Part shown: positions 12,708 to 41,598 of the stretch, in pieces
How positions within the stretch are numbered: the first letter of the stretch is position 1
How the letters are laid out: each line of letters opens with the position of its first letter
Source: an uncultured Acidobacteriota bacterium
GTDB lineage: Bacteria; Acidobacteriota; JAQAZP01
Reading direction: 5' to 3'
DNA: 64,000 nucleotides
NCBI GenBank assembly: GCA_963836075.1
Contig: CAWIIB010000009.1
Span: forward strand, 1,792,001-1,856,000
The notes under the pieces: generated by a model
Database searches by the model: none
What the model saw: only the letters and a program-made list of their open reading frames with translations
What the model was told of the DNA's origin: nothing
Translations under genes and position numbers: made by a program

Positions 12708-12725
12708 TTCGAACGTCCGTTCGCA
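12708..12725. promoter_or_regulatory. Palindromic operator TTCGAACGTCCGTTCGCA (putative TetR site)
   Basis: 17/18 match to the reverse complement of the palindrome at 35689-35706; lies between a possible -35 (TTGCGA 12701) and -10 (CATTTT 12724). Confidence 0.7.
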
Positions 12726-12840
12726 TTTTCTTCCCAATTCGCAGGTTGCGGTAAGCAACAACCGAATCGATACCCGAGTCCCGCCTCCGGCGCGGCAGGT
12801 GGCCCGGCGTGACTCACATCCCAAGTGGGCAGGACACATC

Positions 12841-13584
12841 ATGACACTGGAAGGAAAAAAGGCGATCGTCACCGGCGGCAGCCTGGGCATCGGCACTGCC
12901 ATCGCCAAGGAACTGGCCCGGCAGGGCGCCGACGTGGCGATCAACTACCGGAAACACGACACCGAGGCCAACCAGGTGGTGGCCGAGATCGAGGCCATGG
13001 GCCGCAAGGGCCTGGCGGTGAAGGCCGACGTGTCCAGCTTCGACGACGCCCAGCGCATGGTGGATACGGTGGCCGAGACCTTCGGCGGCCTCGACATCCT
13101 GGTCAACAACGCCGGCATCAACCGTGACGGCGTGATCTGGAAGATGACCGAGGAGCAGTGGGACCAGGTGCTGGACATCAACCTCAAGGGCTACTTCAAC
13201 TACACCCGCGCCGCGGTGCCGATCTTCCGCGAGCAGAAGTCGGGCAAGATCATCAACGTCACCTCGATCAACGGCCTGCGGGGCAAGTTCGGCCAGACCA
13301 ACTACTCGGCCTCCAAGGCCGGGATCATCGGCTTCACCAAGGCCCTGGCCCGCGAGCTGGGCCGGGCCAGCGTCAACGTCAACGCCGTGGCCCCGGGCCT
13401 GATCGAGACCGACATGATGCGCGAGGCGCCGCAGAAGGTGCTCGACGCCGCGCTGGCCGAGATCGTTCTGGGACGGCTGGGCCAGCCGGAAGAAGTGGCC
13501 ACCGTGGTGGCCTTCCTCTGCAGCGAGGCGGCGCGGCACGTCACCGGCCAGGTGCTCCAGGTGGACGGCGGACAATACATCTAA
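12841..13584 (+). CDS. FabG-like SDR (3-oxoacyl/3-hydroxyacyl-CoA dehydrogenase)
   Basis: TGGSLGIG, LVNNAGI, YSASK and VTGQVLQVDGG motifs. Confidence 0.9.
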   Translation: MTLEGKKAIVTGGSLGIGTAIAKELARQGADVAINYRKHDTEANQVVAEIEAMGRKGLAVKADVSSFDDAQRMVDTVAETFGGLDILVNNAGINRDGVIWKMTEEQWDQVLDINLKGYFNYTRAAVPIFREQKSGKIINVTSINGLRGKFGQTNYSASKAGIIGFTKALARELGRASVNVNAVAPGLIETDMMREAPQKVLDAALAEIVLGRLGQPEEVATVVAFLCSEAARHVTGQVLQVDGGQYI

Positions 13585-13598
13585 GGGAGAAGCGAACC

Positions 13599-14791
13599 GT
13601 GGAACTTATCCGACATCGTGGCAATCAGCGCCGTGCGCACCCCCATGGGCCGCTTCGGCGGGACCATCCGTGACATCGCCTCCTACGACATCGGGGCGGT
13701 GGCCATCCGGGCGGCCTACGAGCGGGCCGGCATCAGCGGCGGCGACGTGGACGACGTGATCTTCGGCTCCTGCCGCCAGGCGGGCAACGGCCCCAACCCG
13801 GCGCGAACCGCTTCCGTCCGCGGCGGTGTGCCCACCGAAGTGCCGGTGATCACCCTCAACATGGCCTGCCCCTCGGGCATGCGCGCCATTGCCATGGCTG
13901 CCCAGGCGATCCGCCTCGGCGAGAGCAAGGCGGTGCTGGTTGGCGGCATGGACAGCATGAGCACCATTCCCTACCTGATGAAGAACTGCCGCTGGGACGG
14001 CTTCAAGATGGGCGATCGCAAGCTGGAGGACGGCTGGTGCGACAGCGTCGACCCGCTCTGCGGTGTGGGCATGGGCGCCACCGCCGAGAACCTCGTCGAG
14101 AAGTACGGCATCTCCCGCGAAGCCCAGGACCAGTTCGCCGTGGAGAGCCACCACAAGGCGGCCAGGGCCCAGGCCAATGGCTGGTTCGACGATGAGATCG
14201 TCCCGGTGATCGTGCCGGCCAAACGCAAGCAGCCCGAAGTGACCTTTGACAAGGACGAGACCATCCGCGGCGACACCACCCTGGAGAAGATGGCCCGGCT
14301 GAAACCGGTGTTCAAGAAGGACGGCACGGTCACCGCGGCCAACGCCTGCGGCATGTCCGACGGCGCCTGCGGCCTGGTGATCACCTCCCGCGAGCATGCC
14401 GAAAGCCCTGGGGGCAACGCCGCTCTTTTCGCTGGTGACCTATTCCAAGGTGGCCTGTGACCCCCAGACCATGGGCGAGGGGCCTGGCGTGGCCATCCCC
14501 GCGGCCCTCGACGCGGCCGGCATGACCCTGGACCAGATGGATCTGATCGAGGTCAACGAGGCCTTTGCCATCCAGGTGCTGGCCAACGAGGCGGTGCTCG
14601 GCTGGGACCGCAGCAAACTCAACGTCCACGGCGGCGCCATCGCCCTGGGCCATCCCACCGGCATCAGCGGGGCGCGCATCGTGGTCACCCTCTACCACGC
14701 GCTGAAGGGCAACGACAAGGAGCTGGGCATCGCCAGTATCTGCGGCGGCGGCGGTGTGAGCATGGCCCTGATCATCAAGCGGGAGTCCTGA
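13599..14791 (+). CDS. Thiolase (acetyl-CoA C-acyltransferase); +1 frameshifts near 13607 and 14403
   Basis: SAVRTP, NMACPSG, GTVTAANA, EVNEAFA, GAIALGHP and CGGGG motifs spread over two ORFs that join on removing one base. Confidence 0.9.
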
Positions 14792-14794
14792 GTC

Positions 14795-15568
14795 ATGAGC
14801 GATTACGAATTCCTGCAGTTCGAGCGGGCCGGCGGGGTGGCCACCATCACCCTCGACCGCGAGCCGCTCAACGTGCTGCACAACCCGATGATGGCCGAAC
14901 TGAACGCTCTGCTCGACCAGGTGCTGGGCGGCGACGACCTGCCGGCAGCGCTGGTTTTCCGTGCCAATCACAAGGCGTTCTGCGCCGGCGTCGACGTGGC
15001 CGACCACACCGACGACAAGGTCGGTGAGATGATCGACTGCTTCCACGGCATCTTCCGCCGCCTGGCCGCCACCGACGTGCTGACCATCGCCGCGGTGGGC
15101 CGGGCCGCCCTGGGCGGCGGCTGCGAGCTGGCCTGCTTCTGCGACATCGTCCTCGCCTCGGAGAAGGCCAAGTTCGGCCAGCCCGAGGTGCAGGTGGGGG
15201 TGCTGCCCCCGGTGGCCGCCTGCATCCTGCCCCAGCAGGTGGGGCTGAAGAAAGCGGTGGAGCTGAACGCCCTGGGTGCCGTCATCGGTGCGGTCGAGGC
15301 AAAGGAGATCGGTCTGGTGAACCAGGTCTTCCCCGTGGAAGAGTTCGAGACGAAGGTGGACGAGTATCTGGCCCACATCGACACGCTTTCCCGCCCGGTG
15401 GTGCGCATGGCCAAGAAGACCACCGTGTTGGCCGAGCGCGAGCGGATGCTCGAGCACCTCGAACGGGTGGAGAAGATCTATCTCGACGAGCTGATGAAGC
15501 TGGCCGACGCCCACGAAGGGATCGCCGCCTTCCTCGAGAAGCGGGCGCCGGAGTGGAAGCACGAGTAA
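14795..15568 (+). CDS. dch: Cyclohexa-1,5-diene-1-carbonyl-CoA hydratase-like crotonase (Dch/BamR)
   Basis: AFCAGVDVADH, ALGGGCEL and GQPEVQVGV motifs typical of dienoyl-CoA hydratases; bam operon in the same window. Confidence 0.7.
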   Translation: MSDYEFLQFERAGGVATITLDREPLNVLHNPMMAELNALLDQVLGGDDLPAALVFRANHKAFCAGVDVADHTDDKVGEMIDCFHGIFRRLAATDVLTIAAVGRAALGGGCELACFCDIVLASEKAKFGQPEVQVGVLPPVAACILPQQVGLKKAVELNALGAVIGAVEAKEIGLVNQVFPVEEFETKVDEYLAHIDTLSRPVVRMAKKTTVLAERERMLEHLERVEKIYLDELMKLADAHEGIAAFLEKRAPEWKHE

Positions 15569-15572
15569 TCGT

Positions 15573-15670
15573 GTCATCGCGAGGAGCAGGCGTAGCCTGC
15601 GACGTGGCGATCTAGAAGGTCGTTCGGAAAACAGGAGATTGCTTCGTCGCCTTTGGCTCCTCGCAATGAC
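15573..15670. repeat. Palindromic mini-element GTCATCGCGAGGAGC...GCTCCTCGCAATGAC
   Basis: 15-bp imperfect terminal inverted repeat with internal GACGTGGCGATCT / AGATTGCTTCGTC arms; intergenic. Confidence 0.75.
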
Positions 15671-15707
15671 AATCGTTATCACCAATTGTTCCTGAGGGAT
15701 GTAACGC

Positions 15708-18700
15708 ATGCTGAAAGCAGGAGAAGTCGGCGTCCATCCCCCCGGTGCGCTGGGGGTCGCGTTCTTCGTCCACACCAATGCCGAGTGCTTCATCGGCCGG
15801 GGCGGGGACGGTATCACCCAGCCTCTGAAAGATGCCGGCTGCTTTCAGCTGGACGACCACGGCCAGATCCGCACCATCGCCCTGCGCAACAAGATCTTTT
15901 CCAACCTGCTGGAGGCCGAAGCCCTCGACCGGCTCCCCGAACTGCTCTTTGTCTGCTGCAACCCGGACCAGCTGATTCTCTTCACCGCCGAGCTGACCCG
16001 TTTCCTCGAGATTCTCGCCGAACGGGGCCGTTTGAAGAGCGTAGAGGACGTCCGGCGTGAAGTGCCGATCCTGCTCATCCTGCCCAACGGTATCCTCAGC
16101 GAAAAGACGATGACCGACTACGCCGAGCAGCTGCACGAGTCGATCCTGATGCAGCGGCTCCCGGGGGTCACCGAGGAGATGCGCCTGGCCCTGCTGGACC
16201 GGGTGGTGCGCGGGGTCTCGCTGCAGGCCGGCGGCCGGCGGGGCAGCGGTGCCGAAACGATCTACATCCACGAGCGCAAGGGCATGGTGGTCTTTGCCGG
16301 CGGCGGCGAGGAAGAGCGGGAACGGGTGGTCGAACTGTTCTCCACCCACGATTATCCCTTCAAGCATGCCGAGGGGGTGCCGGGCACGCGGGTGGAGTTC
16401 GACAAGGCGATGATCTCCATCGTGCTCAACGTCGGCGGGTTGATCCACACCGTCAACCCCGACGGCTCGCTGATCGACCTGCGGATGGGCGACCTCTGCA
16501 AAGACCCGGACAAGCAGGACTTCGTGCAGAAGATCACCCACGCCGTGTTTGCCACCGGCCAGGCCGCCGGGGCCTATCCGCCCGAGGCGACCTACGACGA
16601 TATCTGGGCCACCCACCGGGCCACCATCCTGGCCCACCAGGGCCATGTCACCAGCTCGCTGAAAACCTTTCGCGATGCCCTGAAATTCGGGCTCTCGGGG
16701 GTCAGCCTCTTCTCCAACGAGGAGTGGATCCTCACCCCGCTGATCGCCTATGCCGCCAGGGCCGGGCTGCAGGAGGAAGAGCGGCTTTTCAAGGATCTCA
16801 AACGCCGGGTTCAGGAGTCGATGGCCAAGGCGATCCGCCACCGCGAGCAGTCCTCTGCAGGCGGGGCGGGCAATCAGAGGACCAGCAAGATGAAACTCAT
16901 CGGGCAGCGCAATTTCAACATCGAGCTATACGAAGACGAATCGGACTACCTGCTGATGGTGGGCACCATGCTCGACGCCCACCACCTGATCAAGCTCGAG
17001 CTGACCCTCTTCCTGCCTGACGAGCAGATCACCCGCAGCAAGCTGCAGATGAGCCGGGTGCCCTTCCCGGTCTGCTGCGAGATCGAGCCGCTGGCCGACC
17101 GGCTGGTGGGGCTGCGCATCCAGCGCGGGGTGGTCAACGAGATCGGCCGCCGGGTGGGCGGACACGCCGGTTGCTCGCACATCAAGGAACTGGCGATGAA
17201 CCTGGTCTACTTCGCCGCGTCCAACCTGGTGGGCCGCCAGGTGAACATCGACGGCAAGTCTCCGGATGAGCGGTTCGAGCTGACCAAGGAACTGCTCAAC
17301 GATTCCTGTCTCGCTTACGGCCAGACCACCGCCTGGGGGCTGGACGAGCGGATCGGGATCAAGAAGGTCGGGGAGGAGCACGGCAACCCCATCCCCCTCG
17401 GCGACTACGAACCCTCCTTCGGAGTGCTGCTCCGCGACCGCACCGAACGGTGGGGGGACAAGGTCTACCTGCGCTACTGCAGCGACGAACAGCCGCAGTC
17501 GTTGAGCTGGAACGAGTTCACCGGCCGGGTGCACAAGATCGCCAGACACTACATCGACCTCGGCATTCGCAAGGGCGACCGGATCGGCATGATCTCGGAG
17601 AACCGGCCGGAGATGTACATGGCCGAGCTGGCGGCGATGATCATCGGCGCGGTCACCGTGCCGATCTTCTCCGACCATACCCCGCAACAGGTGACCTACG
17701 TGCTCAACCGGGCCAAGCCGCGGTTCGCCATCGTTTCCGGAAAGCACCAGCTGGACAAGATCGAGATCGGCAAGCATCCCTGGGTGGACAAGTTCTTCGC
17801 CATGGACTTCGATTCCGACTGCCGCAAGTGGGGGGCGCTCGATTTTGCCGAGCTGCTGGGGGAGGGCGGCGCCTCGGAGGAAGAGTTGACCTCCCGGGTG
17901 GACGGTGTCCGTCCCGACGACCTCTGCGTGATCATGTTCACCTCGGGCACCACCGGTGCGCCCAAGGGCGTTCGGCTGGGACACAGGCACCTGATCTCCC
18001 AGCAGAAGGCGATGTCGCTGATCTGGGACGTCAATGAGAATGATGTCTTCCTCAACTACCTGCCCTGGCACCACAGCTTCGGCGGGCTGTTCGAGCGGTT
18101 CATGAGCCTCTACACTGGCGCCGAGCTCTGCCTCGACGAAGGCCGGGGCAAGGACATCGACCGTCTGATCAGGAACTGGGACGCCTTTGAACCCACGGTT
18201 TTCTTCAGTATCCCGCGGGTCCACGACATGCTGGTGGCCAGGAGCTCCGAGAGCGGTGACGCCGAAGAGATCATCTGGGGTGGGCGCCTGCGCCTCGCCT
18301 TCACCGCAGGGGCGCCGCTCCCCGGCCATGTGGAGGCGGCCTACCGCGAACACGGCATCCCGATCCTCGAGGGCTGGGGGCTGATCGAGGCCGCGCCCTG
18401 CGTCACCGTCTGCACCACCGACCGCGCCTGGCGCCGGGGCTGTGTGGGTTTCCCGCTTCCCGGGGTCAAGATCCGGATCAACCACAACCAGGAGATCCTG
18501 GCCAAGGGGCCCAACGTGATGGACGGCTACCTCCACGACGAGGAGGCCACGGCCCACATGCTCACCGAGGACGGCTGGCTGCGCACCGGCGACCTGGGCG
18601 AGATCACCCCTGACGGGCTCCGCCTGCTTGGCCGCAAGGACGGCACCTTCAAGCTGACCACCGGCGAGAAAGTCCATCCGCCGCGGATCGAGACCGTGCT

Positions 18701-19088
18701 GGTCAACGAGTCGCCGTACATCAGCGAGGCGGTGGTGGTGGGGGCGGGCAAGGACTTTGTCAGCGCGTTGATCTACCCCGATTTCGCCACTCTCGAGCTC
18801 TGGCTGAAAAAGCGACACGTGCCGGTGGAGCAGGCGCTCACCGATCCGGCGGTACACGAGTTGTATGCTTCCGAGATCGCCCGGATCAACCCGATGATCG
18901 ATTACAAGTTCCAGCAGGTGCGGCGGGCCACCGTGGCCCAGCGGATGCCCTCTCTGGACAACGGCGAGCTGACGCCTTCCGGGAAGCTGGTGCGCAAGAC
19001 GATCATGAACAATTTCAAGGCCCAGATCGACGCCCTGTTCGAGGCCGATGTGCCGCCTGAGGTGATCGAGATCCCAAAGACGGGCTGA
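15708..19088 (+). CDS. Three-domain fusion: ketopantoate-reductase-like + DUF2889-like + AMP-dependent acyl-CoA ligase
   Basis: C-terminal IMFTSGTTGAPKG, EGWGLIE and WLRTGDLG; middle PFPVC...GCSHIKEL...SCLAY; N-terminal PGALG, LPNG and TSSL resemble PanE/ApbA (weaker match). Confidence 0.75.
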   Translation: MLKAGEVGVHPPGALGVAFFVHTNAECFIGRGGDGITQPLKDAGCFQLDDHGQIRTIALRNKIFSNLLEAEALDRLPELLFVCCNPDQLILFTAELTRFLEILAERGRLKSVEDVRREVPILLILPNGILSEKTMTDYAEQLHESILMQRLPGVTEEMRLALLDRVVRGVSLQAGGRRGSGAETIYIHERKGMVVFAGGGEEERERVVELFSTHDYPFKHAEGVPGTRVEFDKAMISIVLNVGGLIHTVNPDGSLIDLRMGDLCKDPDKQDFVQKITHAVFATGQAAGAYPPEATYDDIWATHRATILAHQGHVTSSLKTFRDALKFGLSGVSLFSNEEWILTPLIAYAARAGLQEEERLFKDLKRRVQESMAKAIRHREQSSAGGAGNQRTSKMKLIGQRNFNIELYEDESDYLLMVGTMLDAHHLIKLELTLFLPDEQITRSKLQMSRVPFPVCCEIEPLADRLVGLRIQRGVVNEIGRRVGGHAGCSHIKELAMNLVYFAASNLVGRQVNIDGKSPDERFELTKELLNDSCLAYGQTTAWGLDERIGIKKVGEEHGNPIPLGDYEPSFGVLLRDRTERWGDKVYLRYCSDEQPQSLSWNEFTGRVHKIARHYIDLGIRKGDRIGMISENRPEMYMAELAAMIIGAVTVPIFSDHTPQQVTYVLNRAKPRFAIVSGKHQLDKIEIGKHPWVDKFFAMDFDSDCRKWGALDFAELLGEGGASEEELTSRVDGVRPDDLCVIMFTSGTTGAPKGVRLGHRHLISQQKAMSLIWDVNENDVFLNYLPWHHSFGGLFERFMSLYTGAELCLDEGRGKDIDRLIRNWDAFEPTVFFSIPRVHDMLVARSSESGDAEEIIWGGRLRLAFTAGAPLPGHVEAAYREHGIPILEGWGLIEAAPCVTVCTTDRAWRRGCVGFPLPGVKIRINHNQEILAKGPNVMDGYLHDEEATAHMLTEDGWLRTGDLGEITPDGLRLLGRKDGTFKLTTGEKVHPPRIETVLVNESPYISEAVVVGAGKDFVSALIYPDFATLELWLKKRHVPVEQALTDPAVHELYASEIARINPMIDYKFQQVRRATVAQRMPSLDNGELTPSGKLVRKTIMNNFKAQIDALFEADVPPEVIEIPKTG

Positions 19089-19467
19089 CCAACTTGGTCT
19101 CACCGGCCTGACCCTGGAAGCAAGGCCGTTTCACTCCCTTAGAGTAGCGTTGATACTGGCCGGACTGATGATCCATACTGGCTGAAGTGTCCTTCGCAGG
19201 TCTCAGTGCTGACAACCCGGTTTTCCGCCCGGTGCCCAGCAGACTGCCGACTGCACCCTCTGATCTCCGGCCCCGATCGCGCTCTTCCTGGTCCGCATGG
19301 ACCAGGCCGCGACGAGCATTTACCGGCCCCGGCGGCCGGAGCGGACCGACCGGCACCTCGAGCTGTCCCAGCCGGGGTTCCGCGCCATGGTCACGGTGCC
19401 GGGGCACGAGGCCGAAGATGTTATAGTCAGACAGGAGACCTTACAGAACGAAACAGAGAGGGAGAAA

Positions 19468-21969
19468 ATGGAATCCGAAACAGGTGTCTGGTCCGGCTGG
19501 CAGGAAACACCCATATCCCAGGGCGAGATCGATATCAGTCTCGTCGAGGACCGGCTGGCGGAATTTCTGGGTCGCTACGGCGAGAAGAGCGTCGTCGGGC
19601 CGCGGCTGGCCGAGGTGCTGGGCCCGGGCGACGGCGAGGAGCGCCTGGCGCGGCTGATCGCGGCCTGCGGGTTCGAGGACCGGTCCGAGGCCTTTATCCG
19701 CACGGTTCTCGACCAGTTGAGCCGGACGTCGCCCCAATCCGTGGCGGACATCCGCCTGGGGGCCATCGTCCTGCCGCAGGAGATCCTGCTGCTCTTCCTC
19801 GAGGAGCTGCTGCCGGGCTCAGGTTTCGTCAACGTCCGCGAACTGGAGCACTATGAGGCTCTCTGCAACATCACGGTCCCCGATGAAGAGCGCGACCGCA
19901 TCCGCCGGGTGCTCCGCGAATACCCGGTGCGGCTGTCCCACCACACGCTGCGCCAGGTCCGGCTGTCCGAGGGAATCGGCTACCAGTACCTTCCCTTTGC
20001 CGACGAACTCTCGGAGGAGGGGCAGGTCCACACCTGGATTGGCCAGTTCCACCAGGGCGTGGTCGAGCAGATGTACGACAACCGGGTCATCATGGTGCTC
20101 CACATGAGCTGTCCGGTCTACTGCCGCTTCTGCTTCCGCAAGCACAAGGAGACTCGGGAACAGCTGCCGCCCACCATGGAGGACATCGACGCGGCGCTGG
20201 GCTACATCGCGGGCAACGACCACATCAGAGAGGTCGTGCTCACCGGCGGCGAGCCGCTGATGAACCGCAAGACGGTGGAGCAGTCGATCTACGGGCTGGC
20301 GCGCATCCCCCACATCGAGACCGTGCGCCTCGCCGCCCGCACCATCTCCTACCACCCCCAGATGCTGCGCCGCCGCAACGAGTTCTGGATGCGCTTTCTG
20401 ATCAAGGCGCGAGAGGACCTGGCGGTGGTCGGCAAGCACCTCGAGGTGGCCGGGCACTACATCCATCCGGACGAGGCGTCCATCGCCTCGCTCGAGGTCA
20501 TCGCCGAACTGGCACGAAACGGCATCCCGGTCTACGTCCAGACGCCCTTCCTCGCCGGCTGCAACGACGACGGCGAGGTCCTGGCCCGGCTCTATCACGA
20601 GCTGCGGCTGCGCGGGGCGGAGATGCACTACATCTTCTTCCCCTGCAGCGCGATCAAGGGGAACCGCCGCTACTGGAGCCCGATCGCGGCGGCGTTGCGC
20701 GCCGGCAACGAGTTGCGGGCCCTGCTCTCGGACCGGGCGATCCCTCACCTGACCACGGCGACCAGGATCGGCAAGATCGACTGGCTGACCAGCGGCTGGG
20801 CGGTGGAGCGCGACGAGGCGGACACCGCCTTCATCTGGATCCGGACACCCTACACCCGGCAGTACTTCTCCCAGTTCGTCGAGGCCGTGGAAGAGATCGA
20901 CGGTGTGCGCGAGAACGCGGACGGCATGCTCGAGGCGCGATTCATGGCCGATATCGGCGACGAGGCGCTCTTCGTCCGGCCCCGGGTCGAACTGCCGGAT
21001 GTCGACCAGGTGGACGACGAGGACCTGCCCTACGACGAGGAGCAGATCGCCGAGCTTTACGACTACCTGCCTGATATCGGACCCGATATCGTCTCCAGCG
21101 GCCTCGAGAAGCTCTGCCGCGTGCACCGCACCCGCGTCGAGCTGCGCGTGGATTGCGACGACGGGCAGCTCGGGCGGATCGTCGACTACGTGGCGGCCCA
21201 CCCGGCGATCACCGATGCCGTGCTGCGCACCGATACGCCCCTGCCGGACTCCCTGGACGAGATCGAACGCGCCGTCGCCGCCCTGCGAGCCGGCACCGAC
21301 GTGCGGTCGTTCCGGATGCGCAGCCGCATCTTTCACGAGGAGCCTTTGCTCTACGACGCCTCGGTGGTGGAGCGCTATGCGGCCCTGCAGAACCTCGACG
21401 TGGCCGACCCCGTGCGTTTCGAACTGGAGACGCTGGTGCTGAGCGCGGACCAGCTCGACGACAGCCACCGCCGGGTCGTGGAAAGCCTGCACCAGAACGG
21501 CGTGACCATCTATCTCAACAGCTGCCTGCTGCACAACGTCAACGACAGCGCCGCCGCGATGCGGGCGCTGTCGTCGAAGTGCCGCCGTTTCGGTTTCGAG
21601 TTCCACCACCTCTATGTCGCCGGCGCGCAGACCCAGCGTCGCTGGAACGCCGGACGGCCGGTGGACCTGGACACGATCATCGGCATCGCCACCGAGCTGC
21701 GCCGCACCGGCAGCGGCCGCGAACTCCCCCGCCTGATCGTCTCCACCGAACTGGGGGAGGTGGATTTCGGCCCGGGTTGCCACATCCGCCCCGGTCCCGC
21801 GCGCGGCACGGCGGAGATCACGCTGTGGCCCTACACCTTGGACTACTTCCGGGCCATGGACCCCGCCTTCGAGTGGCCGGAAGGGGTCCGCGAGGACGGG
21901 GGGTACCCGGTGGTCACCACGCCCGGGCTGCGCTGCAGGCACAGCTGGGGACCGCCGCGGCGCCCGTAA
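19468..21969 (+). CDS. KamA-family (lysine 2,3-aminomutase-like) radical SAM protein with a degenerate second domain
   Basis: YPVRLS, CPVYCRFCFRK, EVVLTGGEPL and QTPFLAGCND; the C-terminal half repeats the pattern without the Cys motif. Confidence 0.8.
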   Translation: MESETGVWSGWQETPISQGEIDISLVEDRLAEFLGRYGEKSVVGPRLAEVLGPGDGEERLARLIAACGFEDRSEAFIRTVLDQLSRTSPQSVADIRLGAIVLPQEILLLFLEELLPGSGFVNVRELEHYEALCNITVPDEERDRIRRVLREYPVRLSHHTLRQVRLSEGIGYQYLPFADELSEEGQVHTWIGQFHQGVVEQMYDNRVIMVLHMSCPVYCRFCFRKHKETREQLPPTMEDIDAALGYIAGNDHIREVVLTGGEPLMNRKTVEQSIYGLARIPHIETVRLAARTISYHPQMLRRRNEFWMRFLIKAREDLAVVGKHLEVAGHYIHPDEASIASLEVIAELARNGIPVYVQTPFLAGCNDDGEVLARLYHELRLRGAEMHYIFFPCSAIKGNRRYWSPIAAALRAGNELRALLSDRAIPHLTTATRIGKIDWLTSGWAVERDEADTAFIWIRTPYTRQYFSQFVEAVEEIDGVRENADGMLEARFMADIGDEALFVRPRVELPDVDQVDDEDLPYDEEQIAELYDYLPDIGPDIVSSGLEKLCRVHRTRVELRVDCDDGQLGRIVDYVAAHPAITDAVLRTDTPLPDSLDEIERAVAALRAGTDVRSFRMRSRIFHEEPLLYDASVVERYAALQNLDVADPVRFELETLVLSADQLDDSHRRVVESLHQNGVTIYLNSCLLHNVNDSAAAMRALSSKCRRFGFEFHHLYVAGAQTQRRWNAGRPVDLDTIIGIATELRRTGSGRELPRLIVSTELGEVDFGPGCHIRPGPARGTAEITLWPYTLDYFRAMDPAFEWPEGVREDGGYPVVTTPGLRCRHSWGPPRRP

Positions 21970-21973
21970 GGAT

Positions 21974-22048
21974 CAGGGGGATTCCTGTCACCTGGCAACT
22001 GTCCAGGTCAGTGTTTCCGGCCGGCGGATACGGCGGCTGGTTGTAGGG
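21974..22048 (-). pseudogene. Orphan 3' fragment encoding PYNQPPYPPAGNTDLDSCQVTGIP
   Basis: Minus-strand translation matches the C-terminus of the 5996-7579 protein; it sits outside any gene, about 20 bp past the stop at 22069. Confidence 0.75.
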
Positions 22049-22068
22049 AAACGGCGCCCTTCATCCAT

Positions 22069-25300: not shown

Positions 25301-25596
25301 GAAAAGCCTCTTAATCTTGGATACTAGGTAAAAGGCTGTTCATTCGTCAAGCCGAACTTTGTCTGCACAGTGCCTGATTGGCGGCCATTCTTGAAGCGGT
25401 TCAGAGCTTGCGGATTTCCTAACGCAGGTTCGATGGCTGGCTGCGGAAGCGGCGCTGGTGAAGGTCATCGGGGAATGATAGCCACCTGAATGATCAGATG
25501 CTCCAATAATCTACACTTTTAGTGTCACACCTGCTATGGTGAGTCAATAGAGTCAATAGTATGTGGGGAGGAAACGAGGATACGCCCGACATCAGG

Positions 25597-26085: not shown

Positions 26086-26147
26086 CCGCCACACGACGGC
26101 CCGGTGCAGCTGGACCAGTTCGGCCGGGCGATCGCTCGCTGGGATTC

Positions 26148-26176
26148 TTGACGCCAGGAAAGGAAGTCCCTATCCT
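26148..26176 (+). promoter_or_regulatory. Sigma70-like promoter TTGACG-17bp-TATCCT
   Basis: Canonical spacing; spacer nearly identical to that at 28671-28699. Confidence 0.6.
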
Positions 26177-26285
26177 TTTCCGCATTGGTCTCCGCTGCAG
26201 AAAACTCGGGATTCTCAAATTGTCCGTTATAAAAACCATCTCGGGAAGCTACCACTGGCAAACCGCTGATGCCATCAAGTGGCCT

Positions 26286-28552: not shown

Positions 28553-28670
28553 GCGGGAAAAAGGGACTTGACCCGGGATGGCAGGGAACGCGCCTGGGCG
28601 TGAGCACGGTTGTTCCCCGGGCCGCCGGGGTGGACTGTGGATAACGAATGGCGGAGGCGGGGCAAAATCG

Positions 28671-28699
28671 TTGACGCTGGGAAAGGAATTCCCTACACT
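28671..28699 (+). promoter_or_regulatory. Sigma70-like promoter TTGACG-17bp-TACACT
   Basis: Canonical spacing; 22/25 identical to 26148-26172. Confidence 0.6.
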
Positions 28700-28772
28700 T
28701 TGGCCGCACGCCGGAAAACGAGTTGATGGTCCGCTGTGACATGGAGTGCGCCCGAATCAGATGTTGGATCAA

Positions 28773-29579
28773 ATGAGACTGCTGCACGGGCCGGCAACGG
28801 CTCTGATCTTCTGCATGGTCCTGGCCGGCTGCCAGGATAGGACTCCGCAGGATGTGGAGCTGGAGCTTCCGCCACCCGAACTCTTCACCTGGACCACGGG
28901 ACAGCCGGTCTCCTTCTCGCCACCGCCGGATACCTGGAATCGCTCCCGATACCAGAACGGCGGGGCGGAGGGCGCGAGCTACGTCCTGGCCGGCTCCAAA
29001 GGCGAGCAGATCCTCGTCGCCGAGCGCTTTTTTCTGGGCCGGCGCGATCGCTGCGCGAAGCTGAAGGAGATCCTGGAGAAGATGCAGGACTACGACCGTT
29101 CCAGCTTTGTTAGCGCCGTCGGCATGGCGCGGCTTTACGATCGCGAACCCTATAATGGCCATGAGAAACGAACCGTCGCCGCGGTCAACGAAACCCTGGA
29201 ACGGGCCAATGAAGCATTCCAGCAGGCGGACACCACGGCGGCGCGTTTGGATCTGGAGTGGGCACTGGAACAGGCCGCCACGATCCGATACACCGTGGAG
29301 GAAACGGTGGAGGAGGTCCTCTTTACCCGCGAGAAGAACACGGTCTACCCGGCGCTCCGGGTGGACGAGCCAGTCCCGGGCGAGGTGGCTGGTGAGCGGG
29401 CGCTGGTGGTGGGCTTCACCTTCCAGGGTCACGGAACGCCGATGGTCGGGCGCAGAGTCTACGTGGTGAAGAACAACCGCATGTTCGAGTTCGGCTTCCA
29501 GGGCCTCCAGGGGAACCTGGCGCTGTTCGAAAAGGTCCTCGATTCGGTGACCTTTCCGCCGGGAGCGTGCGAACATTGA
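28773..29579 (+). CDS. Hypothetical lipoprotein
   Basis: Signal peptide with LAGC lipobox. Confidence 0.65.
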   Translation: MRLLHGPATALIFCMVLAGCQDRTPQDVELELPPPELFTWTTGQPVSFSPPPDTWNRSRYQNGGAEGASYVLAGSKGEQILVAERFFLGRRDRCAKLKEILEKMQDYDRSSFVSAVGMARLYDREPYNGHEKRTVAAVNETLERANEAFQQADTTAARLDLEWALEQAATIRYTVEETVEEVLFTREKNTVYPALRVDEPVPGEVAGERALVVGFTFQGHGTPMVGRRVYVVKNNRMFEFGFQGLQGNLALFEKVLDSVTFPPGACEH

Positions 29580-30331
29580 GACGATTCGGCCCAGCCATCA
29601 CCCTGATCTGCCTGTTGGCCACTGCCTGTGAGCGCGTGCCGGAGCCCCCGCCCTCCCCGACCCGGGTCGATATCGGCATCCACGAAATCTCGTTCCTTGT
29701 TCCGCAGGGGTGGGAGCACCTGGACCACGGCCGGGAGCATCGATTTCACCGTGAGCTTTCGCAGATCTCCGCGGCCGACCTGGGGCCGGTGACTCGCGAA
29801 GGCTATCTGAGGGATCTGCGCCGCGCCTACCAGCTTTTCCGCGAGGATCGCATCGACGATGCGGATGCCCACGTCGGTGGTCTGGATTTGTCACCGGCAT
29901 TCCCCGAGGGGAAGCCGCGAAATGAGTTTCTCGAGTCGTGGCGGAAGGCCCTGGACGGGGGGCGCTCCACCAGCATTTCCTGGGGGGATGCCCAGATCGC
30001 CTGGGAGTACATCCTGGAAGAAGTCGAGTTCCTCCCCGACTCCGCCCCCGACCTGGCGACCCTCGTCAAGGACTTGTTTCCATCGATCGAGACCGCGGCA
30101 CACCGCGAGATCGGCGCGCAAAATCCGGTGGAACTGTCCGGTCGGCCGGCGATCCGGATCGAGACGTGGGACCGTTTGAGCCACGACCACCGCCAGTCCT
30201 ATATCTTCGTGCTCAACGAGGAGAACCTGTTCCTGCTCCGGATGGAAATGGGGCCATACGCCGAGATGAAACCGGCATTCGAGGCGCTTGCGGGCTCGTT
30301 GGCGTTTCACTCCGCGTCGTCCGCCTCGTAA
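29567..30331 (+). CDS. Hypothetical lipoprotein, probable distant paralog of the upstream gene
   Basis: Signal ending LATAC; shares xSFxxPxxW and a similar C-terminus (FExxxxSxxF) with 28773-29579. Confidence 0.65.
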   Translation: MRTLRRFGPAITLICLLATACERVPEPPPSPTRVDIGIHEISFLVPQGWEHLDHGREHRFHRELSQISAADLGPVTREGYLRDLRRAYQLFREDRIDDADAHVGGLDLSPAFPEGKPRNEFLESWRKALDGGRSTSISWGDAQIAWEYILEEVEFLPDSAPDLATLVKDLFPSIETAAHREIGAQNPVELSGRPAIRIETWDRLSHDHRQSYIFVLNEENLFLLRMEMGPYAEMKPAFEALAGSLAFHSASSAS

Positions 30332-31470
30332 CGAAGGAGCTTCTGCGACCCGTCGTCCGGGCCACGCCGCTGCTGCTCGCCCACGGCCCAGGCGTGCCGC
30401 TCGTCCAGGACGTGGATCGACAGCATCGCCTCGGACCCGACCCGCGCCTGCTCGCTCCACGTTTCCCCGGCGTCCGAGGTCCAGAGGACCACAGCCGTGC
30501 CGTTGTCGCGCTCGAAGCCCACGACCCAGCCGCGCATCCCGTCGAGGAAGTCGACGTCGGTCAGGGTGTCACGGACGCCGCTGTTCTGGTGCTCCCAGCC
30601 ATTGCCCCCGTCCGTGGTGTGCAGGATGGTGCCGTTGTCGCCCACCGCCCACCCCTCCAGGCGATCGACGAAGTCCACGCCCCGCAGGTGCGGATTCTCC
30701 GATCGCTGCTCCTGGAGAAGCTCCCAGCTCTCGCCGCCGTCGCTGCTGCGGCGAATCAACCCGTGCCTCCCCACCAGCCAGCCGCGGTCCGGGTCCACGT
30801 AGGACAGAGCCTGACCGTGAGTGGGGCTGGACTTCCTGGCCTCGGGATCAAGCACCAGCGGCCCCCTCCACGTTTCGCCACCGTCCACCGTCCGCACCAG
30901 GCCGCCGCTGCCGATGGCCCAGCCGTGTCTGTGGTCCACGAACTGCAGGTCCTGCAGGTGGGCCCAGACCCGGGTGTCTGACGGGACCCGGTGCCACTGA
31001 ATCCCGCCGTCTATGGTGCGGAGAATCTGGAAGCCGTCTCCGACGATGATGCCGGTCTGCTCGTCCAGGAACCAGATGGCGTTGAGGTGGAAGCTGGTGG
31101 CCCGCCTTGAGGGCCGGCTGAGCCCGCTGTCGAACCTCCACGTCCGACCGCCGTCGGTGGTGCCGCCGAGGATTCCGCCCTCGATGTTGATGCCTCCACC
31201 GACGATCCAGCCACGCTGCTCGTCCAGGAAGAACACGTCCCGGAACGTGGCTTGCGTGCCCAGTTCCTGCACCACCCAGCGCACGGAAGGCTCTTCTTCC
31301 TTATCCACGGCGCAGGCCGAGAGCAGGAGAGTGGAGATGATTGCGACGAGGAGAACTCTCAAAACGAATCCGGAATCTGTTCGCCATGATGCACCGTCCT
31401 CCACCAGCCACCCTCCCCGCAGGGGAGCGGAATATCCTTGTATCTCATTGTTTTCGGAATATTGGAGCAC
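30307..31470 (-). CDS. YCF48-like BNR/Asp-box beta-propeller lipoprotein (start uncertain)
   Basis: Repeats of DVxFxDxxxGWxVG...TxDGGxxW; LSAC lipobox. Confidence 0.85.
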   Translation of the reverse strand: MLQYSENNEIQGYSAPLRGGWLVEDGASWRTDSGFVLRVLLVAIISTLLLSACAVDKEEEPSVRWVVQELGTQATFRDVFFLDEQRGWIVGGGINIEGGILGGTTDGGRTWRFDSGLSRPSRRATSFHLNAIWFLDEQTGIIVGDGFQILRTIDGGIQWHRVPSDTRVWAHLQDLQFVDHRHGWAIGSGGLVRTVDGGETWRGPLVLDPEARKSSPTHGQALSYVDPDRGWLVGRHGLIRRSSDGGESWELLQEQRSENPHLRGVDFVDRLEGWAVGDNGTILHTTDGGNGWEHQNSGVRDTLTDVDFLDGMRGWVVGFERDNGTAVVLWTSDAGETWSEQARVGSEAMLSIHVLDERHAWAVGEQQRRGPDDGSQKLLRYEADDAE

Positions 31471-31557
31471 GGAATCAATGCACGAGCGTTGTGATTTTTC
31501 CGTTCATTCGATGTTCAATCGGGCAAAACCGAGGCCCGCCACACTTTCCGGAAAGCA

Positions 31558-33871
31558 CTAAATCGTCAAGCGGATGGAGCCGTAGGGGGACGGGGAGTGT
31601 GCCAGGTCCTGACCCAACTCCAGGTCGAACTCCGGCTCGCCCACGGTGACGATGCCCAGATGGCCGTCCACGGTGACCAGGTCGCCGTCTGCGAGGAGCT
31701 CCGCGGCCTGGCGCACGCCGTTGACGCAGGGGATGCCCAGCTCGCGGGCGATGATCGCGCCGTGGATCAGCATGCCGCCGCGCCGCTCGACGATGGCGCC
31801 GGCCAGCGGCACGAGGTGGGTCATCGTGGGCTGGATCGCGTCGCAGACCAGGACCTCGCCCCGCCGGAAAGCCCCAGGTCCTCCGCGTCCGCGGATGCAG
31901 CGCACCAGCCCGGTGGCCAGCCCCGGCGAGGCCGGCTGGCCGACCAGCTGCCGCGGCGTCTCGCCCGGGCGCGTGCGCTGACGGCCGGCGTCTCGCGGCC
32001 GGCATCTCGTCCTCGATGACCATCGGCTCTGCCGGCGGTCGCGCAGCGCCTCGGCGAGCTGAGCGGCGTGCTCGCCGGTGACCCGGCCGATCGCCGGTCA
32101 GCCTGCCCGAGCCGCGCGAGCCGCTCCGCAGCCTCGTCCAGCGCGCGCAGGAGCTGGCTCTCCAGCCGCCCCACAGGAGGTTGTCGTCGTCGCGCAGCCG
32201 CCAGCTGAGCCGGCCGGTCTCGATGACCTCCGGTCGCCTCGTCGCGGCGCTCCGGTCCGACCGCCTCGAGCAGGCGCTGCTCCAGCTCGGCACGGCTCGT
32301 GCCGGGCCGTCGGCTGCCGGCTCGCCGCGGTCGGCCGCCTCGCCAGTTCGACGATGTTCCGGAGCACGGCTCGGGCCGGTCGCGCAGCCGCTCCCGCGTA
32401 GGCGATGTCCAGGTAGCGCTCGTCGAGATCCTCGAAGCCGCCGACGAACTCGCCGCGCCTCGGCTGACCGGCCGGCCAGCTCGCCGGCGGCACGCCGTCC
32501 AGTTCGCGACCCGGCATGCGCGGCCAGCAGCGTCTTGCACTGCCCGGCGCAGGGCGCTCGTCCGCCGCCAGCTGCCGGGCCAGTCGTCGATGGCCGCGGT
32601 TGCGCCGGGCGGCCAGCAGCGGCTGGTCCCGGAGCAGGCCGACGAACTCGTAGGGATCCTCCGGCCGGACGGCGTCGTTGTAGTAGGTGGCCAGCCGGCG
32701 GACCCCGTGGGCGAAGGGGATGAACTCGTCCCAGTAGATCTTCTTCCAGCGCGCGAGCGGCCCGGCGCCGCCGTCGATGGCGTCGGCCAGCTGCCGGTCG
32801 TCGCAGCGCGGCCAGGTCCTCGGCGGCGAAACCCGGGCCTTCGCCGCCAGCTCGCGGGATGAGCTCTGCTCGGCCACGCGCTGCCGCAGGTCCCGCAGGC
32901 GCGCGTCGCCGGGCCGCAGGGTCAGGTACCAGTCGCGCTCGTCGTCCGTTCTGGGCCGACGGTGGTGATCGGGCGGGCCTGGAGCAGGGTGAGCGACCGC
33001 TCCGGCCGGTCCACTCCATGTCGGGCGGCCAGCCGAACAGCGCCTCCACGCGACAGCAGGGCGTCGAGGACGCGTCGAGGTCGCCGGGCTGCCAGCAGCG
33101 GTTCGCCGTCCGGTGCCGTCCTCGCGCGCTCCCGGCAGCCAGTTGATGACGGTCTCGCGTGTCGCGGTCGATCTCCCAGCGGTCGGGGTCCACCGCGCCG
33201 TCCACCAGCTGGCTGCAGGGCCCGGGCACGGCCTCGATGATCGCCCGGTCCTGCCGGCGTCCCGCGGGTCGCGGCCGAAGGCGACCCCGGAACGGTCGCG
33301 GTCCACCATCTCCTGGACCAGGACGGCCATGCGGCTGTGCGCCGGGTCGAGCCCCAGTTCCTTGCGGTAGAGCAGGGCGGCGTCGGACCAGAGCGAGGCC
33401 CAGACCAGGCGCACCGCGTCCAGCACCGCCTGCTGGCCGCGGACGCCGATGATGGATTCGTGCAGCCCGGCGAAGACTGCGCCGGCCGAGTCCTCGCCCA
33501 GGCGCCGAGGAGCGGACGGCCAGCGCGGCGCCGTCATCGAAGCGGGTCATCCGCGTCGGCGATGATCTCGCGCAGGTGGCCGGGCAGGGCGTGGCGAGAG
33601 AAGAGGGAGCGGATGCGCAGCGCCGCGTCCCAGATCTCCTCCCAGCGCATCTCCTCGAGCGGCTTGCGCCCGAGCTCCATCCGGATGGCTGTGGTGACTT
33701 CGCCTCGTCGAGAAACGCTCGTAGGCCGCCGTGGTGAGGCAGAACCCGGCGGGCACGGTGAACCCCGCCCCGGCCAGCCGGGCCAGCTTGGCCGCCTTGC
33801 CGCCGATGATCCGTTCGTCGCCGTGCTGCGGTGCGGTCCAGCGGGATCAGGAGCGGGGGTCGGGAACCCAC
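31558..33871 (-). pseudogene. PEP/pyruvate-binding + PEP-utilizer (His swivel) domain gene, heavily frameshifted
   Basis: Fragments IGGKA, PAGFCLTT, AVRSSA, FAGLHES, MAVLVQEM and GGMLIHGAIIARELGIP are scattered over three frames. Confidence 0.7.
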
Positions 33872-34362
33872 TGGCTGACCTCCTGGAACCGCATCACGTG
33901 CAGGAAACGCACGGCATCCACCCGGAAGAGGGCCGAGGTGTCGGCGTGGACGAAGGACCGCAGGTAGGGGTGACGGGCGAGGAGCAGCTCGGCCCAGCGG
34001 TGGAACTCCTCGCCGCCCTCCACGTGGGTCGCCTGCCCGGTGACGGTGACCGCCTCGGTCTTCATCAACTCGCCCACCCGGTCGGGCCGGTTGTCGATGA
34101 GCAGGGCCACCCGGCCGCTCCTGGTGAGCATGCTGAACTTGCGAGTGGCCTTCGGCGTGGCGAACACGGCGTGGCGCAGGTCCGGGGTGAAGGCGAACGC
34201 CACCAGCGCGCCGTACGGCTGCCCCTCCCCCTGGACGCAGAGCACGGCGTAGGGCTGGCTGTCCACCAGGCGCTGGATCCGCTCGCGCACCGTTGCCCGG
34301 GAAGGGGTGCTGTCGTCCCCGGACGTTCCATCATCGATTACCGGCTCGTCAATAGTGCTCAT
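33847..34362 (-). CDS. Pyridoxamine 5'-phosphate oxidase-like FMN-binding protein
   Basis: AVLC...QPYGALVAFA...FATPKATRKF...VALLIDNR pattern. Confidence 0.8.
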   Translation of the reverse strand: MSTIDEPVIDDGTSGDDSTPSRATVRERIQRLVDSQPYAVLCVQGEGQPYGALVAFAFTPDLRHAVFATPKATRKFSMLTRSGRVALLIDNRPDRVGELMKTEAVTVTGQATHVEGGEEFHRWAELLLARHPYLRSFVHADTSALFRVDAVRFLHVMRFQEVSQWVPDPRS

Positions 34363-34485
34363 CGCGTCAAGTCTCCGTGCGGCCCGTTTTCGCTCGTCAG
34401 TGATGATAGTGGTTTCGGCTGCCAAAATCAGGGTATCATATTCAGTCCGAGTCCGCGCAGCAGCGCCCCATCCGGGAGGCATTCC

Positions 34486-34923
34486 ATGGCCGATCTCATT
34501 CTGCTGGCCCAGGCGGCGGCGACCCTGTTCATGGCGGGCCTGATCTGGTTCGTCCAGGTCGTCCACTACCCGCTCTTCGTCCAGGTGGGGCGCGAGCGTT
34601 TCCCGCGCTACGAGACCTCGCACCAGGTGCGCACAACCGTGATCGTCGTGCCGATGATGCTGGCCGAGGCGTTCACCGCCCTGGCCCTGATCTTCTGGCG
34701 CCCGGCGGGGGTCCCCTTGGCCGCCGCGGTGACCGGTTTCGTGATGCTGGCCCTGATCTGGGGCTGCACCCACCTCTGGCAGGTGCCGATCCACACCCGG
34801 CTTTCCAAGGCGTTCGACGTTGCCGCCTACCGCCGCCTGCTGGCCTCCAACTGGGTGCGCACCATCGGTTGGACCCTTCGCGGGTTGCTGGTCTGCTGGA
34901 TGATGCACTCGGCCTGGATCTGA
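34486..34923 (+). CDS. Conserved membrane protein (about 4 TM helices)
   Basis: GLIWFVQVVHYPLF and NWVRTIGW; GGAGG RBS. Confidence 0.75.
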   Translation: MADLILLAQAAATLFMAGLIWFVQVVHYPLFVQVGRERFPRYETSHQVRTTVIVVPMMLAEAFTALALIFWRPAGVPLAAAVTGFVMLALIWGCTHLWQVPIHTRLSKAFDVAAYRRLLASNWVRTIGWTLRGLLVCWMMHSAWI

Positions 34924-34939
34924 CCTGTCCGGGTCCCGA

Positions 34940-35311
34940 TTATGCCTGCTGGAAGAGAATGACGATCAGGCACATCACCAGCACGGTGGCCGCGGGGACC
35001 GATTTCTGCGGCGAGTCCTTTGCTTTGATGTGCATCAGGATGGCTCCGAGCATCAGGACCGCCAGGCCGGCCGCCGCCGGTTTGACCACGACCGAAATCC
35101 ACACCCCGATGATCAGAAGGGCGGCGCAGAGGACCTTGAGAAACCCGATGACACCCACCGACCAGGGGGGCATGCCGTAGACGGCGAACTCCTCTTTCAT
35201 GCTTTTCGCGGCGCCGCCGCGCCAGGCGGTTGGTTTCCCGAAGCGCAGCAGCCAGACATTGAGAATAATCAGAGCGATTACCAGTTGGAGAAGAGTCGTG
35301 AACACCTGCAT
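34940..35311 (-). CDS. DoxX-like membrane protein
   Basis: NVWLLRF...RGGAAKSMKEEFAVYG...MLGAILMHIKAKD; GGAG RBS. Confidence 0.8.
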   Translation of the reverse strand: MQVFTTLLQLVIALIILNVWLLRFGKPTAWRGGAAKSMKEEFAVYGMPPWSVGVIGFLKVLCAALLIIGVWISVVVKPAAAGLAVLMLGAILMHIKAKDSPQKSVPAATVLVMCLIVILFQQA

Positions 35312-35651
35312 GGCGGTCTCCCTCCCGTTAACGGCGGACATTGAACAGCGCGATCCGGTCACTTTGCCTGTTTACTCTATACCGATAAACTGGTCTGCGA
35401 GAGAAAAAAATGTCGTCCCGGTTTCGGACCGGGGTGATACGCACGGCGGCTTGCCTTCGAGGCCTTAACCACTTCCGCTACGACCACCGGGGACGGACCG
35501 GCCACTCCGGTGGCGGGCCGCTCGGGGCGGGGTGGGTCGCGATGAGAGCTTCATCGGGGGAATATGCTGATGGCGTCAGGCCACCGCAGGTGGCCTCGAG
35601 CGGTGGGCGAAAGCAGAAGCGATAGAGGAAAATGATCCGGACGGCTTTCCC

Positions 35652-35706
35652 TTGACTTTGGCCCTGCCGCGTTATAAATTCAACTGTATTCGAACGGACG
35701 TTCGAA
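35652..35706 (+). promoter_or_regulatory. Promoter TTGACT-17bp-TAAATT followed by palindrome TTCGAACG-GA-CGTTCGAA (35689-35706)
   Basis: Perfect 8-bp arms just downstream of the -10 box, ahead of the TetR gene. Confidence 0.75.
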
Positions 35707-36551: not shown

Positions 36552-36552
36552 G

Positions 36553-37701: not shown

Positions 37702-37734
37702 CTGAATGAATTCGTCTGGATAGCGGGGTTGAAC

Positions 37735-41569: not shown

Positions 41570-41598
41570 ACGTGGCGTGAAACCACTTCGAAGGAATT

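Follow-up and report, generated by a model that had tools for sequence, protein, structure and literature searches.

A palindrome shared by two promoter regions points to a TetR-family repressor of a class II benzoyl-CoA reductase operon in an uncultured Acidobacteriota bacterium

Background

For PaaR (TTHA0973), a box, CNAACGNNCGTTNG, has been derived from two promoters, and a selection experiment with TTHA0973 gave the differently spaced consensus AACnAACGTTnGTT (PMC6651687); the effector of PaaR is phenylacetyl-CoA (PMC4424350). MbdR of Azoarcus sp. CIB is a TetR repressor with 3-methylbenzoyl-CoA as its inducer and several mbd promoters as its targets (PMC4424350). The named regulators of the Geobacter bam genes are BamVW and BgeR (PMC4424350, PMC7324539, PMC6678401, PMC6079105), the latter being a repressor relieved by benzoate (PMC4424350, PMC7324539, PMC6678401); the inducers of both are stated as unknown (PMC6079105), and the excerpted part of a Desulfobacteraceae study gives TetR types only for the p-cresol and sulP clusters. 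Very little has been described of how the class II (strictly anaerobic) benzoyl-CoA pathway is regulated. Here we analyze a 64-kb stretch of contig CAWIIB010000009.1 from an uncultured Acidobacteriota bacterium, referred to as the window, in which an 18-base inverted repeat occurs twice, once ahead of a tetR gene that leads a bam operon for class II benzoyl-CoA reductase (BCR) and once, 23 kb away, between two divergent operons for CoA-ester metabolism. Comparison with related loci makes it likely that this 18-mer is the operator of the TetR protein encoded downstream of it, wired both to the bam operon and to the promoter region around the distant copy.

Results

Two copies of one palindrome in the window

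Direct reading of the window confirmed what a first-pass annotation of this DNA had claimed, namely that TTCGAACGGACGTTCGAA at 35689-35706 (site 2, O2) has a reverse-complement copy at 12708-12725 (site 1, O1), the minus strand of which reads TGCGAACGGACGTTCGAA and is identical at 17 of 18 positions; the observation of two operator-like copies is confirmed. The motif is not a perfect 18-bp palindrome because its central GA is not self-complementary, and the single position at which O1 deviates from the consensus lies in the outer half-site. When both strands of the 64 kb were scanned with up to three mismatches, four matches were returned, which are O1 and O2 each read both ways, compared with a mean of 0.06 and a maximum of 1 in 100 dinucleotide shuffles, none of which reached four. 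In the window, the motif is thus found in two places only, and the second copy is far above chance; by our own arithmetic, the chance expectation of a 17/18 match in 64 kb is ~1e-4. The 14-base core, CGAACGNNCGTTCG, occurs exactly at O1 and O2 only within the window (12710-12723 and 35691-35704), and with two mismatches allowed it gives seven matches against 5.3 expected, the five beyond O1 and O2 being at chance level. A position weight matrix built from the 64 family sites described below scored O2 at 26.3 bits and O1 at 20.9 bits, with 8.6 bits for the third-best window site and shuffle maxima averaging 7.3 (standard deviation 3.0, largest 18.5); there is some circularity in these scores, as resemblance to the window motif was the basis for selecting the training sites. 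That third site (25417-25434, TCCTAACGCAGGTTCGAT), intergenic before citrate-synthase-like genes, is inside the shuffle range and is not claimed. Both O1 and O2 lie in low-G+C non-coding DNA. An extended repeat or mobile element at the two sites was ruled out, as their flanks do not align and have nothing in common beyond one extra base. Ahead of tetR, a promoter scan recovered the sigma70-like promoter noted earlier (one found, 0.2 expected). An alternative -10 box, TATAAA, is present at 35673-35678, and O2 begins 10 nt after it.

Conservation of the site ahead of tetR relatives

Conservation was assessed by a profile search of genome contigs with a 12-sequence alignment, which returned at least 80 loci, all of them 37-51% identical to the TetR homologue P0003; relatives 70-93% identical are not among the 80. 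Between -350 and +60 of the TetR match, 64/80 loci hold a site that differs from TTCGAACGNNCGTTCGAA at no more than 3 of 16 positions (13 exact), while the remaining ~1.38 Mb of these loci held only 12 such sites, and 29 of the 30 CNAACGNNCGTTNG matches in the loci sit just upstream of the TetR gene. Because this search began from the window motif, a motif-blind count was also made of all 5+5 inverted repeats with spacers of 0-8 nt, using 70 same-size regions 3 kb away as controls. The repeats CGAAC-N4-GTTCG, TCGAA-N6-TTCGA and GAACG-N2-CGTTC were present in 46, 44 and 39 of the 80 upstream regions, respectively, and no repeat was seen in more than 4/70 control regions. The half-sites change symmetrically between taxa, to ATCGAACACTTGTTCGAA in Blastocatellia and to TTCGGACGATCGTCCGAA in Longimicrobiales, and loci with a site span Acidobacteriota, Gemmatimonadota/Longimicrobiales, Myxococcota and others, with downstream genes that vary. 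Comparison thus finds that this TetR family keeps a TTCGAACG-NN-CGTTCGAA site before its own gene, and the earlier proposal that the palindrome is the cognate operator of the neighbouring TetR is supported by the searched and the motif-blind counts alike.

At these loci the site abuts or overlaps a TATAAT-like -10 box, itself 17 nt past TTGAC; its start is typically 0-5 nt beyond that box, and it so covers the transcription start, the classic place for a repressor to act; O2 and the site at locus L002 have the same promoter layout with a 9-10 nt gap. This geometry bears on the alternative that the palindrome is an RNA hairpin (a 5' stabilizer, attenuator or terminator) and not a DNA site, to which the scan's flagging of O1 as resembling a terminator, with CATTTTCTTC behind a 5-bp stem, and the fact that symmetric half-site changes would preserve a stem too both lend some colour. 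At most loci, however, only 0-5 nt separate the -10 box from the site, and the transcript would miss the 5' arm of the hairpin; moreover, there is no plus-strand gene upstream of O1 to terminate, Rfam gave no family match, and the presence of the site follows the TetR clade. We regard a hairpin as extremely unlikely.

Sixteen of the 80 loci are without a site, and nine of these make up one starred TetR clade of their own, a loss across a whole clade that fits protein and site co-varying. This pattern also speaks to the idea that another factor binds the site and that the tetR neighbourhood is coincidental. Other proteins could make use of TTCGAA, a short palindrome in its own right, but the site and the TetR gene occur together in 64/80 loci across phyla while the downstream genes vary, and the site is lost in one TetR clade; binding by another factor is accordingly judged very improbable, and recognition by the adjacent TetR is the reading carried forward.

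Three further observations were made in these upstream regions. At ~300-320 nt upstream of the TetR match, three loci of the clade without the site (L050, L063 and L066) carry GGCGAAC(A/G)(C/G)GCGTTCGCC, a GAAC...GTTC palindrome with different outer bases that is possibly a diverged operator. A CRP-like TGTGA-N6-TCACA overlaps the -35 region of the TetR promoter, ~35-50 nt upstream of the operator, in 9/80 loci (among them L049, L055, L060, L067, L071, L078 and L080), which suggests a second, global control layer in Acidobacteriaceae. The sole clear multi-site case among the 80 loci is L069, where a strong second operator-like site, ATCGAACGTACGTTCGCT (L069:3712-3729, 22.2 bits), is separated from tetR by 6.3 kb and lies at the 5' end of an outer-membrane protein gene of the TonB-dependent-receptor-like type.

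The gene contexts of the relatives are mostly those of CoA-ester operons. In 65/80 loci an enoyl-CoA hydratase gene comes after the TetR gene in the same orientation (an arrangement labelled ECH-first and placed by eye for the tree), and a match to this hydratase (ECH_a-like) is found within -6/+7 kb in 73/80, a span that also takes in divergent beta-oxidation loci. Aldehyde dehydrogenase is present in 41/80 loci and a BoxB-like di-iron protein, at 230 bits on TIGR03225 against a cut-off of 499, in 34/80. At L002 the TetR gene is followed by BzdN, BzdO and BzdQ of class I BCR, all above cut-off; at L029 it is followed by BamB-like and BamD-like genes; at L001 a PaaK-like ligase is beside it; and in 4/80 loci an HcrA-like gene is found 4-5 kb downstream. 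In a quick tree, the window TetR grouped with 10 close database proteins in a starred clade (99). The join of this clade to L002 and L029 has a support of 85 and is unsure because the branches are long.

The TetR protein and its nearest relatives

As sequenced, tetR is split into an N-terminal piece (35777-36157) and a C-terminal piece (36159-36551). Aligned with the homologue P0002, the two meet at its residues 107/108, indicating that the single extra base is the sole lesion of the gene; the frame-corrected TetR of the first-pass annotation is in this respect upheld. The C-terminal piece is 88% identical to P0002. For the N-terminal piece, identity to P0002 is 72% over the whole length, near-complete from residue 61 onwards and about 97% in the helix-turn-helix (HTH) part. 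In the open reading frame (ORF) starting at 35756, residues 81-123 matched PF00440 (E-value 1.2e-13; 51.1 bits, cut-off 24), and PF17932 was matched in the other frame, at 36219-36551, with an E-value of 3.5e-17. A search with the HTH part returned 2987 proteins of 146-466 aa, all with PF00440+PF17932, and identity over 72 HTH residues was 80-93% in ~100 of the best 120 clusters listed and 65-79% towards the end of that list. It is in Acidobacteriota that similar clusters are commonest. No curated NCBIfam model matched the TetR at its cut-off, the best being SACE_7040 at 68.7 bits against 250.

An AlphaFold2 (AF2) model of P0003 has nine helices and a predicted local distance difference test score (pLDDT) of 80.4. 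By sequence and fold, the nearest solved relatives are PfmR (3vpr), AibR (5k7h), 3ccy, 3dcf, BkaR, FadR and KstR2, which, apart from the uncharacterised 3ccy and 3dcf, are mostly CoA-ester sensors; ligands in the solved complexes include isovaleryl-CoA (5k7h), stearoyl-CoA (3whc) and lauroyl-CoA (3anp). The window tetR also encodes an N-terminal tail of ~60 residues (35777-35960) that is Lys/Pro/Gly-rich with KPG-type repeats. Shorter such tails are present in P0002 and P0003, and a pLDDT below 50 for residues 1-39 of the AF2 model marks the tail there as disordered; this tail might be a DNA-contacting arm.

Genes at the two sites

The coordinates of all features are collected in Table 1. Site 1 is in a divergent non-coding gap, as had been stated earlier, with 115 nt between it and the start of the SDR gene and 545 nt between it and that of the Hcr-like gene. 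The gap contains no convincing ORF, no Rfam family and no tRNA, and a sigma54 promoter considered beside O1 was dropped, its GG/GC spacing being off by one by eye. On the plus strand, the hydratase of the candidate operon scored 141.2 bits on TIGR03189 (cyclohexa-1,5-dienecarbonyl-CoA hydratase, Dch), under the cut-off of 292.5, and is therefore not a Dch equivalog; generic enoyl-CoA hydratase models scored higher, and the dch label given to it earlier is not supported. Right after the ligase fusion, an 890-aa ORF (19297-21969) carries a KamA-type (aminomutase-like) radical SAM core with long extensions.

On the minus strand, the best match of the Hcr-like alpha part in the PDB was the alpha subunit of 4-hydroxybenzoyl-CoA reductase (1rm6_A, 419.7 bits; next 236), and scores on the NCBIfam equivalogs were below cut-off in each case (TIGR03194, 719 against 994.55; TIGR03193, 187.8 against 257.8; TIGR03195, 91.6 against 404.55). 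In the Hcr-like enzyme the beta part with FAD, the gamma part with 2Fe-2S and the alpha part with Mo are fused into one reading frame, unlike those of the three-subunit 1rm6. Hcr-like enzymes act before ring reduction, so this second block may be a peripheral pathway. Domain and NCBIfam annotation of the window showed no bamA, had or dch equivalog, and the earlier claim that the TetR represses steps downstream of ring reduction is in this regard not established.

Both hallmarks of a class II BCR cluster, a BamB orthologue and adjacent BamC-I electron-transfer modules, are present in the window. BamB aligned with the Geobacter BamB structure (4z3w_A, 'Benzoyl-CoA reductase, putative') at 978.6 bits, residues 3-658 on 1-653, and its next PDB match was aldehyde ferredoxin oxidoreductase (AOR; 1aor) at 196.5 bits. 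The stretch from bamC to fdhD (39698..49507) encodes 4Fe-4S, CCG/HdrD-like, HdrA-like, MvhD/FlpD, NuoE, NuoF, NuoG-like and FdhD domains; the subunit names bamC-I, and the putative reading of BamF as a selenoprotein, follow the Geobacter bam cluster. In the BamF-like MvhD/FlpD protein, the in-frame TGA falls within FVCHW*AYGAADAAG, where relatives carry Cys, and it probably encodes selenocysteine. The radical SAM/SPASM-type gene between tetR and bamB is not present at the TetR-BamB locus L029, and matches of its product to NCBIfam were all far under the cut-offs; this protein might mature a Bam component.

Table 1 Features of the two sites and their flanking genes (window positions)
Feature	Position	Strand	Remarks
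Divergent Hcr-like operon	7657..12162	-	Hcr-like enzyme and enoyl-CoA hydratase (7657-8412)
Hcr-like enzyme	10261-12162 + 8409-10358	-	Xanthine dehydrogenase family; two frames, break inside alpha part
Divergent control region with O1	12163..12840	.	678 bp; 45-59% G+C (window, 64%)
Predicted promoter	12540-12513	-	TTGCCA-16-TAAAAT
Predicted promoter	12610-12637	+	TTGAAT-16-CATAAT, with TG
Operator O1 (candidate)	12708..12725	.	TTCGAACGTCCGTTCGCA; minus strand TGCGAACGGACGTTCGAA; 15/16 specified consensus positions
Candidate O1-controlled operon	12841..19088	+	SDR, thiolase, hydratase, ligase fusion; operon status and O1 control inferred
SDR/FabG-like	12841-13584	+	From domain content
Thiolase	14396-14791 (Thiolase_C); 13618-14460 (Thiolase_N)	+	Frameshifted
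Enoyl-CoA hydratase	14795-15568	+	From domain content
1126-aa fusion	15708-19088	+	~420-aa domain without Pfam match, DUF2889, acyl-CoA ligase; uninterrupted ORF
Sigma70-like promoter of tetR-bam operon	35652..35680	+	TTGACT-17-TAAATT; 9 of 12; consensus match only
Operator O2 (candidate)	35689..35706	.	TTCGAACGGACGTTCGAA; 8+2+8 inverted repeat; 70 nt from its end to tetR ATG
tetR	35777..36551	+	PF00440 HTH and PF17932 TetR_C_24; one extra base at 36158
Radical SAM/SPASM-type gene	36481..37701	+	Between tetR and bamB; true start probably after 36481
bamB	37729..39738	+	Tungsten-containing catalytic subunit, class II BCR; Pfam AFOR_N, AFOR_C
bamC	39698-40240	+	From domain content
bamD	40376-41569	+	From domain content
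bamE	41830-44514	+	From domain content
bamF	44764-45534	+	In-frame TGA at 44818-44820
bamG	45625-46080	+	From domain content
bamH	46089-48017	+	From domain content
bamI	48014-48616	+	From domain content
fdhD	48674-49507	+	FdhD domain

Discussion

A proposed CoA-ester switch and the evidence against it

On the comparative evidence, the switch is most likely an ordinary repressor of the acyl-CoA type. Site 2 very probably serves tetR-rSAM-bamBCDEFGHI-fdhD (rSAM being the radical SAM gene) as its autoregulatory operator, and site 1, in the gap ahead of the SDR-thiolase-hydratase-ligase operon, is a probable second one. In the mechanism we propose, a TetR dimer would bind O2, at or just after the transcription start of the sigma70-type promoter, and would thereby repress its own gene together with those of class II BCR along the whole tetR-rSAM-bamBCDEFGHI-fdhD operon. 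The same TetR would bind O1 in the 678-bp divergent region, where the SDR-thiolase-hydratase-ligase operon, at a distance of 115 nt, would be the likeliest target and the Hcr-like operon, at 545 nt, a less likely one. A CoA thioester bound in the C-terminal domain would relieve repression. Class I and class II BCR act on benzoyl-CoA. Benzoyl-CoA, or a close aroyl- or alicyclic-CoA, is our best guess for this effector because relatives of the TetR are attached to class I BCR, class II BCR and BoxB-like genes (function unverified). Of the aroyl-CoA-responsive repressor first suggested for this locus, an acyl-CoA effector is plausible, given PfmR, AibR, FadR, KstR2 and the gene contexts, and benzoyl-CoA itself is an inference.

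A number of observations weigh against this reading. O1 would fall at about +65 from the sole predicted plus-strand promoter, the predicted minus-strand promoter is ~170 nt beyond it, and no -10 box is found just upstream of O1 in either orientation, so that the geometry of the family is absent there. A second site above 16 bits within +/-10 kb is rare, being found in 1/80 loci (L069), and L001, among the two loci nearest in identity, has no site in the ~200 nt available. The tetR gene as sequenced has no intact single reading frame, unlike what membership of its family would entail, and it is one of three genes with a single-base frame break in the 64 kb, the others being thiolase and the Hcr-like alpha part (near 10260-10360). 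The CoA-ester ligand is drawn from relatives at 20-31% identity, the matrix scores of O1 and O2 are partly circular, and the evidence for the switch is comparative throughout.

The points that concern O1 are those expected if only O2 works and O1 is a relic, a decoy or a low-consequence site controlling neither flanking operon. O1 has neither the -10-abutting layout of the loci and O2 nor a perfect consensus (its one mismatch is in the outer half-site), extra sites are rare near the relatives, and the O1-flanking genes have no close orthologues in TetR-following operons elsewhere, the best being 30% identical to ECH_a. A 17/18 match is, on the other hand, hardly expected by chance in 64 kb, and O1 is placed within a long regulatory gap between two CoA-ester operons; an HcrA-like gene, too, recurs in 4/80 TetR-linked clusters. 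We therefore consider an idle O1 unlikely, though with a chance that deserves to be kept in mind, and retain O1 as a probable second operator. The conservation check that had been called for is answered in part, for the site ahead of tetR, which is found upstream of distant TetR homologues (64/80 loci).

The frame breaks raise a different alternative, in which the TetR is genuinely dead by a real frameshift and the sites are fossils of a constitutive or decaying regulon. The extra base at 36158 and the two further frameshifts beside O1, in thiolase and the Hcr-like alpha part, would agree with such decay, and an insertion that is real would leave the regulon constitutively on. Against this, the tetR pieces retain 88% and about 97% (HTH part) identity to P0002 and bear no other damage, both operators are intact, and a draft assembly would just as well produce three frame errors of one base within 64 kb. 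The breaks may be either assembly errors or decaying genes; a dead repressor seems to us improbable, slightly more so than an idle O1.

A broader form of the proposal is that this TetR clade and its almost invariant TTCGAACG-NN-CGTTCGAA site are a portable, cross-phylum benzoyl-CoA (aroyl-CoA) switch placed on three dearomatizing systems of differing mechanism and coupling peripheral routes here, which we put forward tentatively, as doubtful but somewhat more probable than either of the two alternatives just discussed. The three systems, if it is true, would be ATP-dependent class I BCR (L002), tungsten class II BCR (the window and L029) and the BoxB-like epoxidase operons of Acidobacteriota; the second operator, 23 kb away, would couple an Hcr-like reductase and side-chain beta-oxidation to central ring reduction; and the TetR would be the first defined one-component regulator with its operator for class II BCR. 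A TetR with a defined 18-bp operator would make it possible to test how bam genes are regulated in anaerobes that remain uncultivated, the motif could predict co-regulated aromatic-degradation genes in metagenome-assembled genomes, and the protein would be a candidate CoA-ester-responsive switch for biosensors. One operator kept across phyla before varied CoA-ester operons also eases the study of ligand against fixed DNA specificity. The general understanding of TetR regulation is unchanged by the finding.

Comparison with known systems

Like the TetR proposed here, PaaR of Thermus thermophilus HB8, a TetR-family regulator of phenylacetate catabolism, represses its own and a second operon via a pseudopalindrome, and its box, CNAACGNNCGTTNG, is matched exactly by CGAACGNNCGTTCG at O1 and O2. 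The arrangement of operators, one at the repressor's own promoter and one in a further promoter region, is likewise that of O2 and O1. The genes controlled there are paa genes, and those here would be bam, Hcr-like and beta-oxidation genes; domain annotation of the window found no paaABCDE genes, and the gene linkage typical of PaaR is lacking. MbdR resembles the system in controlling an anaerobic aroyl-CoA ring-reduction cluster, its own promoter included, through operators that span the -10 box and the transcription start, and its inducer is the first CoA ester of its pathway (PMC4424350). It differs in its operator, ATACN10GTAT, and in the ATP-dependent class I type of its cluster, and MbdR was not among the best 60 of 96 PDB sequence matches nor among Foldseek ranks to 49.

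Among the matches listed, PfmR (PDB 3vpr) is the closest solved structure, with an E-value of 1.5e-22 and template modelling (TM) scores of 0.88-0.90 (target-normalised) at 30-31% identity, and it shares a C-terminal W-[FY]-R-P motif with the window TetR family; it is only about 30% identical. AibR, FadR (of Bacillus and Thermus), KstR2 and BkaR have the same fold, the same C-terminal domain class and CoA-thioester ligands, and differ in their 16-25% identity and in their operators and pathways. BamVW and BgeR are alike in controlling bam genes in strict anaerobes; BamVW, however, is a two-component system, and BgeR, should it belong to this TetR family, would already supply an example of this kind for class II BCR. 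A search of the open-access subset of the literature found no description of this TetR-operator pair, which is not proof of absence. The scheme had been called unrecognised for class II BCR, and this holds in so far as that subset prints no case for class II BCR; in kind it does not hold, as PaaR and MbdR work in this way. What is new here is a class II BCR operon under a putative PaaR-box-type TetR with an operator conserved across phyla, in a kind of system that is itself well known.

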